A DNA stretch of 64,000 bases from Octopus vulgaris (Eukaryota). The notes under the pieces were generated by a model. It was given only the letters and a program-made list of their open reading frames with translations. It made no database searches and was not told the origin of the DNA. The DNA is taken from positions 34,038,001 to 34,102,000 of the forward strand of contig OX597816.1 of assembly GCA_951406725.2 (NCBI GenBank), given 5' to 3'. Both the position numbers and the translations under genes were made by a program. Below are positions 5,449-8,137 of the stretch, piece after piece. The stretch's first letter is position 1, and each line of letters begins with the position of its first letter.

Positions 5449-5480
<32 letters not shown>

Positions 5481-5829
5481 CAAAAAGGGAAATAATATAG
5501 ATTACTACCAGTGTCTCAGCACAAAAGACGAATTAGTCATTAGACAAAATATTATTCATATAGAAAATATATCATTCATGTAGAAATATAATTAAGGGCT
5601 CCTTATTTAGGAGCCCTTAATTATATTTCTCTCTCTCTATATATATATATATATTGTAGATAGTATAAATATAAGTTAGTATACATATATATTCGTTAGT
5701 AAATAAATATATATGTGCTAGTATAAATATATATTTATGTATATGTGCCTATAAATATTCACACATATACACGCATACACGCATGCACACGTAAATATAT
5801 ACGTACAGACACAGACGCACGCACACACG

Positions 5830-5914
<85 letters not shown>

Positions 5915-6090
5915 AATAAATATTAGGAATAAATCCAAATTTACAGGGAAAAAAAACAGATTTAGGATTAAATCCAATTTTATAGTAAAATATTATATAA
6001 TATTATTAGAGACAAAACCACTATTTTGCAAAACAAACAAGGAAAGACTTAATTAATACATAAAATTTTAATAAAAAGTCAAAAAAACCG

Positions 6091-6133
6091 CCACTACAAT
6101 TGTTTCTTGTCCTGATCGACAATCTTCAGGTGG
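6091..6133 (-). ncRNA. Minimal type-I hammerhead ribozyme (left arm)
   Basis: Reverse complement: CCAC-CTGAAGA-TTGTC-gatcag-GACAA-GAAA-CAATTG-TA-GTGG; all core nucleotides present. Confidence 0.85.
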
Positions 6134-6143
6134 ACTTCCAATA

Positions 6144-6347
6144 TATGAGATATTGGTGTGAGAGTAGTTGTATTTTTGTAATATGGGCCCTGGATTCTAA
6201 CAGAAGCACAATGTCTTGCGGGTACATGTAGAACCTTATTGATTGCCATCCTTTGTTCAGTGGACCATGGTAGTTTAACACCGTAGCACTGTAATTCTTG
6301 TCCTGACTGGACACATGAGCCACGTGGAATGGTATCTTATGCGGCAT
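6144..6347 (-). pseudogene. CEP104: CEP104 N-terminal fragment (~68 codons), left arm
   Basis: MPHKIPFHVAHVSSQDKNYSA...HGPLNKGWQSIRFYMYPQDIVLLLESRAHITKIQLLSHQYLI aligns by eye to the recalled CEP104 N-terminus (MPHKIGF...HAPTVSGWRSPRFCQFPQEIVLQM...KLQLLAHQYMI); truncated by the HHR segment. Confidence 0.88.
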
Positions 6348-6406
6348 TGTCGCTGCTCTTATGAGCATAATGATTCAAAGTCTCTCAATGATTTACAGTC
6401 TTTCTT

Positions 6407-6779
6407 TGGTTTCACTTGAAGGGAGAGAGAAGGCTAGTTGCTGCGTGACGTCTTAGAGATAAAGATTCTCTTCCGCTGTCGCCATTGGTTTCACTTGAAG
6501 GGAGAGAGAAGGCTAGTTGCTGCGTGACGTCTTAGAGATAAAGATTCTCTTCCGCTGTCGCCATCTTAGAATGGCGACAGCGGAAGAGAATCTTTATCTC
6601 TAAGACGTCACGCACGTCTCTCCCTTCAAGTGAAACCAATGGCGACAGAAGATCTTATCTCTAAGACGCTGTCGCCATTCTCTCCCTTCAAGTGAAACCA
6701 ATGGCGACAGCGGAAGAGAATCTTTATCTCTAAGACGTCACGCAGCAACTAGCCTTCTCTCTCCCTTCAAGTGAAACCA
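6407..6779. repeat. 79-nt unit (putative CEP104 5' UTR start) repeated tandemly and inverted at the palindrome centre
   Basis: ATGGCGACAGCGG...GTGAAACCA at 6407-6485 (-), 6486-6564 (-), 6571-6638 (+, internal deletion), 6639-6700 (scrambled) and 6701-6779 (+). Confidence 0.9.
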
Positions 6780-6838
6780 AAGAAAGACTGTAAATCATTG
6801 AGAGACTTTGAATCATTATGCTCATAAGAGCAGCGACA

Positions 6839-7042
6839 ATGCCGCAGAAGATACCATTCCACGTGGCTCATGTGTCCAGTCAGGACAAGAATTACAGTGC
6901 TACGGAGTTACACTACCATGGTCCACTGAACAAAGGATGGCAATCAATAAGGTTCTGCATGTACCCGAAAGACATTGTGTTTCAGTTAGAATCCAGGGCC
7001 CATATTACAAAAATACAACTACTCTCACACCAATATCTCATA
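6839..7042 (+). pseudogene. CEP104: CEP104 N-terminal fragment (~68 codons), right arm
   Basis: MPQKIPFHVAHVSSQDKNYSATELHYHGPLNKGWQSIRFCMYPKDIVFQLESRAHITKIQLLSHQYLI; the frame then reads YWKST and stops at the TGA inside the HHR core (7058-7060). Confidence 0.88.
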
Positions 7043-7052
7043 TATTGGAAGT

Positions 7053-7095
7053 CCACCTGAAGATTGTCCATCAGGACAAGAAACAATTGTAGTGG
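7053..7095 (+). ncRNA. Minimal type-I hammerhead ribozyme (right arm)
   Basis: CCAC-CTGAAGA-TTGTCC-atca-GGACAA-GAAA-CAATTG-TA-GTGG; GUA triplet, predicted cleavage after 7091; palindromic short stem III. Confidence 0.88.
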
Positions 7096-7184
7096 CGGTT
7101 TTTTTGACTTTTTATTAAAATTTTATGTATTGATTAAGTCTGTCCTTGCTTGTTTTGCAAAATAGTGGTTTTGTCTCTAATAAT

Positions 7185-7244
<60 letters not shown>

Positions 7245-7369
7245 TATATAGCAAGCAAGATAACTAATCTTAAAATCTTTGACTAGATATAAGTAGTAAC
7301 AATACCACAGGTAACTATATCATTGCTCTATTGAGAACTATGTTTCTACATTTTAACCCATCAGAAAAT

Positions 7370-7912: not shown

Positions 7913-8137
7913 TATAAATATATACCTGGTACCCCCTAGCTTTTGTTAAATCATGCCCTATACAATGAATAGTGAGGTGAGAATATCATGCCCGGTTGAA
8001 TAGGAGGACGTCGTAGAAAGCATGGGAGCTACACACGAGAACCACAGCGAAGCCGACTACTGACTGCTGCTGGAATAACCTCATGCACAAGAATTGCTAG
8101 CATTTTGCATGACCAACGCATTATATATATATATATA

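Follow-up and report, generated by a model that had tools for sequence, protein, structure and literature searches.

The locus presented here lies in a 64,000-nucleotide window of the Octopus vulgaris genome (contig OX597816.1, positions 34,038,001 to 34,102,000), to which all coordinates given without a contig name refer. It is a palindrome of two inverted arms, 5994-6507 and 6679-7192, which are 514 nt each, 98% complementary, and differ from each other at 12 of 491 aligned nt. The whole element extends from about 5912 to 7192, a wider span than the 6091..7095 singled out in an earlier note on this DNA, and is set in a (TA)n target microsatellite, visible in the sequence of the left flank at 5833..5911 and of the right flank at 7189..7250. 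Read on the plus strand, the right arm contains a copy of the non-coding first exon of CEP104 (6702..6772; parent at C16:50424709-780, followed there by GT), a copy of exon 2 with the start codon at 6839 (6773..6951; parent at C16:50371805-986) and a copy of exon 3 (6952..7043), which ends exactly at the parent's GTAAGT donor at C16:50338147. These are followed by exon 2 of a Penelope-like element (PLE) at 7044..7192, which begins at the intron acceptor of its family and has the short (~145-nt) family terminus. The left arm has the same organization on the minus strand, with the first exon at 6414..6484 (93% identical to the parent), exon 2 at 6235..6413 and exon 3 at 6143..6234, both assigned by mapping to the parent, and the PLE exon at 5912..6142. 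The latter has its acceptor at 6142, includes a hammerhead motif and has the long (~230-nt) terminus; it is 97.8% identical over 229 nt to an element copy elsewhere in the genome (L187).

Mapping of the palindrome centre (6485..6701) revealed a second full copy of the first exon on the minus strand (6492-6563), a fold-back turn at about 6564-6571, and partial or rearranged pieces of the same exon on the plus strand, so that extra CEP104 exon 1 sequence is present in the centre both in tandem and inverted; it probably arose from template jumps at the 5' end of the RNA. Both the inverted repeat and the CEP104 match far exceed chance. A survey of 44 long frames around the locus gave no evident host gene, though small exons would escape it. 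About 300 bp to the left, at 5480-5630, a short AT-rich element lies between (TA)n tracts; its end is formed by a perfect palindrome of 40 bp with its centre near 5605.

Each arm is an intronless copy of CEP104 exons 1-3, processed from a parent gene that lies on a different contig. The segment 6760-7050 (291 bases) has no matches other than the two arms and a pair of C16 exons separated by 33.6 kb; the unit repeated in the centre corresponds to a third C16 exon, a further 52.7 kb upstream. The exons are thus spread over up to 86 kb in the parent, and introns of ~53 and ~34 kb are missing from the locus. In the parent, exons 1-3 are each followed by GT, and exons 2 and 3 are preceded by AG; the exact removal of the introns is that of a processed retrocopy. 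At its 3' end the parent exon 3 reads CTCATAT/gtaagt, where the window instead runs straight into ATTGGAAGTCC. A motif scan for exon 4 gave no match; the exon was placed from run contigs, 25 kb downstream of exon 3. As it starts with CCTCC and the PLE exon with ATTGG, there is no microhomology at the junction. The copy differs from an L1-type pseudogene in having neither a 3' poly(A) tail nor the 3' end of the mRNA: it represents the 5' part of the message and terminates in PLE sequence and (TA)n.

The right arm encodes a 73-residue chimeric frame (6839..7060) consisting of the CEP104 N-terminus and four residues from the PLE exon. It matches the Pfam family CEP104_N (E 9e-14) and, as the earlier note had observed, stops at the UGA of the hammerhead core. 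A search for longer homologues of the frame, which is a weak test, gave none. Identity to CEP104 exons 2-3 is 97-99% in the arms, which have changes in common with respect to the parent (at 6835, at 6982 and at five sites of exon 1); they therefore derive from one allele. Between the two arms, 7 of the 73 residues of the frame are different. The differences between the arms fit neutral decay, and the CEP104 copy is probably inert.

Contigs from other animals were available from sequencing runs whose RNA nature is only guessed. In four putative RNA runs the CEP104 contigs have the parent alleles and extend into exon 4; none bridges exon 3 and the PLE exon, a result that is silent on expression. 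No RNA run is listed as containing the locus. DNA contigs from two runs, X1 and X5, span the junction of exon 3 with the PLE but reach no more than 26 and 29 nt into the PLE; these fall below the 31-nt junction rule and are hints only. In a further run, X4, of uncertain kind (DNA or RNA), exons 2 and 3 are bridged with a left-arm allele. Together the contigs suggest that the CEP104 copy is shared with other animals. In three of the four putative RNA runs the first exon before exon 2 differs from the captured one (L008, C16:50424709-780), which may be an alternative, perhaps germline, start.

The tail of each arm is assigned, by its sequence and that of its relatives, to the hammerhead exon of a PLE family. 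A search with 151 bases from 7040 gave 915 candidate places in the 2.8-Gb assembly, and scans for exact copies of the hammerhead exon gave 868 matches. The bases preceding the exon are TAG in 310, TT in 377, A or C in 132, VT in 36, BG in 7 and VAG in 6 (the VAG pattern being three bases longer than the others); upstream sequence was read for 22, 30, 40, 30, 7 and 6 of these, respectively. In all 22 TAG copies read, an intron of 1104 nt that ends in TTTTAG/ATTGG is retained wholly or in part, the element's own donor being kept in 8 and missing in 14. Among the other classes, the hammerhead exon is preceded by the donor exon of the element itself in all 30 TT copies read and in most of those read with A/C or VT. 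The family thus has a GT...AG intron with its acceptor just before the hammerhead, and both spliced and unspliced genomic forms exist: 558 of the 868 exact matches do not have the intron's TAG, and nearly all such copies that were read are spliced, some of them to host exons.

In the copy L187 the hammerhead exon is followed by a reverse transcriptase (RT)-like frame, a GIY-YIG-like frame and the donor exon. The frames adjoin the hammerhead exon, are frameshifted, and carry YRDD and VYIGST motifs, with a Cys-rich linker visible. Pfam and PDB searches of the element frames gave no match; Atlas neighbours score 0.95-0.97, and some Atlas clusters have RVT_1 on 10-48% and GIY-YIG on 22% of their members, which serve as leads only. 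The layout is that of a pLTR, with the hammerhead exon before the frame and the donor exons after it in L187, and inverted acceptors in L188-L190. In L187 the donor exon is present twice (at 7922 and 9156), with 1.23 kb between the two, and more than one variant of the donor is seen among spliced copies (L187, L188, L190).

The family's 3' ends are bimodal, falling 140-159 nt past the acceptor in 51 of 117 copies and 220-259 nt past it in 54; the gap of ~85 nt compares with 30-40 nt in published elements. The left arm of the locus stops at the long end and the right arm at the short end, both in (TA)n, and 87 of the 117 family copies likewise end beside (TA)n. With the hammerhead site at +48, both arms and 105 of the 117 copies end far beyond it (140-260 nt past the acceptor), and the RNA that was copied was therefore uncut. 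An outward-facing hammerhead partner is found within 1.5 kb at 46 of 90 spliced-class loci read, a tally that counts both members of a pair. The pLTR layout, the intron, the two preferred ends, the (TA)n targets and the RT/GIY-YIG leads are the grounds on which the family is filed as a PLE; it may belong to the Neptune clade, which has a Cys-rich linker before the GIY-YIG domain. Three near-identical inverted pairs on C14 (L307-L312, at 73.58, 73.81 and 74.54 Mb) surround one 200-bp foreign spacer, joined without a splice site; they are likely a segmental duplication of one insertion.

Similar features have been described for hammerhead-bearing PLEs (PMC4209133, PMC8557442, PMC11167929): an RT with a C-terminal GIY-YIG domain (to which the motifs in the L187 frames would correspond), pLTRs with a minimal hammerhead beside the 3' end of an intron that terminates at helix I, opposite-strand hammerhead pairs 100-700 bp apart (PMC4209133), a partner that is inverted and 5'-truncated, a preference for two ends, (TA)n targets and an uncut RNA template. 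The outward-facing pair is an insertion form also seen in PMC4209133 and PMC8557442. The difference is that these papers stress intron retention, while most octopus copies do not have the intron's TAG and, where read, nearly all of these are spliced.

Foreign sequence joined at the same acceptor was found in at least 14 insertions, from at least 13 donors (the CEP104 locus, L064, L065/66, L067, L068, L070, L071/72, L073, L074/75, L076, L106, L108, L123 and L315/316); since only part of the matches had their upstream sequence read, these counts are lower bounds. L091, L125 and L134, which are junctions of inverted element pieces, were omitted, and L101 was kept out as ambiguous. One of the 13 donors (L065) is unmapped; in the other 12 the foreign sequence breaks off exactly before a GT in its source. 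The mapping is to a single place or a pair of places for seven donors, and relies on paralogs or repeat copies for L067 (where one of three copies was read), L068, L074, L076 and L106. With a GT frequency of 6.2% among the dinucleotides of the C16 stretch as background, simple arithmetic puts the chance of 12 out of 12 at about 3e-15. A host donor spliced to the element's acceptor, the mark of exon trapping, is thus seen at every mapped junction.

The cargoes are varied. One, from a gene with an RNase PH domain (PNPT1-like), comprises six exons in 377 nt; that of L070 derives from a transcript spanning 300 kb, and those of L071, L123 and L068 are further multi-exon spliced cargoes. Others include an Ig/transmembrane receptor (a weak Pfam match) and a member of a multigene family on C17. 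A donor on C29 was captured twice, with different upstream exons, and in L106 the donor of another repeat family is joined to the PLE acceptor. That second repeat family (L322-L327) is built on a unit of 493 bp repeated in tandem, includes fold-back copies, and has a GTAAGT donor of its own, the one used in L106. The L065 cargo is presumably VPS54-like; it gave no match in Pfam, and its last exons were not found within 200 kb of C11. At L065/L066 (C6:133.36 Mb) the cargo is open for 240 codons, and there is a 100-N gap near the first mapped exon on C11. It is likely, from these cases, that the PLE family moves host exons around the genome.

At the CEP104 locus, the right hammerhead (7053..7095, plus strand) has the core elements CUGAAGA at 7057-7063, GAAA at 7080-7083 and GUA at 7089-7091, with the predicted cut after 7091. 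The left one (6091..6133, minus strand) is its mirror copy, with GUA at 6097-6095. Both have the cores of a minimal type I hammerhead (CUGANGA, GAAA, NUH) arranged around stems I and II and a palindromic stem III, ACAAUUGU, for which a self-dimer of -6.4 kcal/mol is predicted. Stem II is closed by U-A, and the G10.1-C11.1 pair, described as highly conserved (PMC4209133), is absent. Rfam detected no hammerhead in the locus, either at the gathering score or at E<=10, and the call therefore rests on the motif and its family context. Rfam matches to miRNAs were rejected, as they correspond to the perfect central hairpin.

Had the junctions arisen by exon trapping of the SVA type, a source element would be expected in cis downstream of each donor. 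No young PLE copy was found in CEP104 intron 3 (25 kb) or in 198 kb downstream, nor in 95-100 kb downstream of the L070, L071, L073 and L123 donors, where two of the stretches hold a 100-N gap. In this one assembly, then, none of five single-copy parents has a source downstream. For three of these donors, on C3 and C4, the nearest same-strand exact acceptors listed are 3.6, 3.8 and 16 Mb away. Old family fragments, of 81-93% identity, that follow the C28 receptor paralogs were not accepted as sources, and the ~13 kb examined between the two parent copies on C29 holds no family copy. Taken at face value, the missing sources favour trans-splicing. They would be expected under trapping in cis as well, because traps in essential genes would be purged.

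A chimera of this kind does appear in one putative RNA run, X12, in which a 1303-nt contig at a depth of 56 joins a foreign exon to the PLE acceptor; the CEP104 contig of the same run has a depth of 5. The foreign exon maps once, at a GT donor at C28:19035972. No chimera of this type is listed in three other putative RNA runs, and the same-strand copy nearest to the C28 donor, 194 kb downstream, has alleles that do not match it. The chimera fits an insertion private to one animal; it would also fit an expressed polymorphic retrocopy or DNA. The C28 site (L284, L285) and X12 together form a candidate for ongoing exon trapping.

The core of the explanation, a splice junction followed by PLE retrotransposition, is in our view very nearly secure. 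Two of its elements are directly visible: the family's 1.1-kb intron, whose acceptor stands just before the hammerhead and upstream of a frame with RT- and GIY-YIG-like parts, and the base-exact join of host donor to element acceptor at this locus and at 11 other mapped donors. As to how the join was made, we favour, with a probability of roughly 0.6, a route in cis, in which host exons were trapped by PLE copies in introns, which have since been lost or are polymorphic, and the resulting chimeric RNA was retrotransposed by the enzyme of the PLE. For CEP104 the trap would have been a copy formerly in intron 3. Inverted-pair insertions put an acceptor on both strands and would therefore trap genes in either orientation. 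The published PLE protein cuts and extends both target strands, from two internal starts downstream of the hammerhead, on uncut RNA (PMC11167929). By analogy, the octopus enzyme would bind the exon downstream of the hammerhead and start reverse transcription internally on the uncut RNA, copying whatever upstream part had been spliced on. Both strands of the (TA)n tract would be primed, one from each family start site, and the two cDNAs, after jumps between templates at the 5' end of the RNA, would be linked head to head. The use of a different one of the two family ends by each arm fits this twin priming. The deep X12 chimera in one run and the double capture of the C29 donor support the route in cis. 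The hairpin and the outward-facing hammerheads would be by-products.

It is possible, though clearly less probable, that the join is made in trans, with PLE transcripts that have an acceptor but no donor (an outron), from starts within the intron or from truncated donor-less copies, taking donors from unrelated pre-mRNAs. Besides the five single-copy parents with no young source downstream, this would account for the 14 of 22 unspliced copies read that have no donor of their own, and an internal promoter over a 5'-UTR intron is described for Penelope and Chlamys (PMC8557442). The C29 donor is joined to two tail haplotypes; the two captures differ at one tail site, which is a CpG and also marks subfamilies. 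The use in L106 of a donor from another repeat family points the same way. Against it, purging would remove the sources in cis as well, the sole RNA chimera is deep and confined to one run of four, unlike rare trans events, and trapping in cis has a precedent in SVA (PMC9148063). Neither splice capture of host exons by PLEs nor trans-splicing by PLEs was found reported in open-literature listings and the opening parts of abstracts; supplements or Repbase entries may mention such chimeras. We regard as equally tentative the wider proposal that the family is a natural trans-splicing acceptor, whose hammerhead-bearing, donor-less transcripts gain 5' exons genome-wide. If this were true, the join would tag the captured exons for the PLE enzyme and give intronless, often palindromic retrocopies of parents with no source, and a mobile element would be recruiting host exons by trans-splicing.

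Under the preferred route in cis, a close parallel is 5' transduction by SVA (PMC9148063), in which an upstream host exon is likewise spliced to a retroelement acceptor and the chimera retrotransposed. As described in that source, SVA is primate, depends on L1 and uses cryptic acceptors, whereas the octopus PLE has its own intron acceptor, an internal RT start and insertion as an inverted pair, with no source copy found. The family would offer a means of making retrocopies and shuffling exons that does not depend on L1 and that picks up the 5' ends of genes, and its inverted copies would serve as two-way gene traps.

The mobilisation of genes with introns by PLEs is known from earlier work (PMC3846280, PMC8557442, PMC6431247). 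In the mobilisation by Penelope elements in Adineta vaga (PMC3846280), as here, the PLE enzyme acts in trans on host sequence with pLTR signals. The cargo described there retains its introns and sits between pLTRs; that in octopus is intronless, joined at a splice junction, and spliced in both arms of the palindrome. For head-to-head palindromes and intron retention an antisense template was proposed (PMC3846280). Since both arms are spliced at the octopus locus, the template must have been sense RNA. In elements described as intron-keeping, a palindrome with both arms spliced across three junctions means that the template had been processed by the spliceosome, and the question of the template of PLE palindromes becomes testable on hundreds of copies.

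The earlier note had read the locus as the source of a self-terminating hairpin RNA and a candidate endo-siRNA or editing locus, and had overlooked that the CEP104 sequence in it is a retrocopy of spliced RNA, with a splice site at the join. The geometry it described is real: the hammerheads face outward on arms of 514 nt, the left on the minus and the right on the plus strand, and a read-through RNA is predicted to fold into a long hairpin of -918 kcal/mol. Self-termination is not borne out, as both arms run uncut past the hammerhead site. We consider it improbable that the locus functions through a read-through RNA, cut by the hammerhead into a defined hairpin for Dicer or ADAR and possibly regulating CEP104. 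The strong predicted fold, the identity of the arms to CEP104 exons 2-3, through which small RNAs could match the parent, and the suggested presence of the copy in other animals would agree with such a role. However, the layout is generic for the PLE family, the RNAs that were copied are uncut, and the arms decay like neutral DNA. In line with the note's suggestion that pairing of the arms might mask the ribozyme, every sampled base of the right hammerhead is predicted to pair with the left arm, and the monomer by itself has a predicted probability of only 0.002 of adopting the hammerhead fold. A monomer of the same class showed no cleavage in the experiments given in PMC4209133, and in PMC11167929 no RNA ends were seen at the cleavage site. 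The run contigs continue through 7091, but contigs cannot reveal RNA ends. As 46 of 90 loci have an outward-facing partner, the locus is not singled out and a dedicated siRNA or editing function is unsupported; incidental double-stranded RNA may arise from it.

A switch of the RT from PLE RNA to CEP104 mRNA, giving an L1-type chimera with no splicing between the two, is scarcely credible: template jumps are likely at the palindrome centre, but base-exact acceptor/donor joins in 12 of 12 cases would not be expected, and the start of exon 4 shares no microhomology with the PLE exon.

Animal non-LTR retrozymes (bioRxiv 10.64898/2026.07.22.740005) are likewise non-autonomous hammerhead-bearing derivatives of PLE pLTRs; they differ in being tandem monomers, and the passages of that report that were examined name neither host-exon cargo nor splice capture. 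One octopus locus is retrozyme-like: at C5:64451624-863 (L135-L136), three units of ~108 bp, each with a hammerhead, are arranged head to tail, a tandem layout that would permit dimer cleavage.
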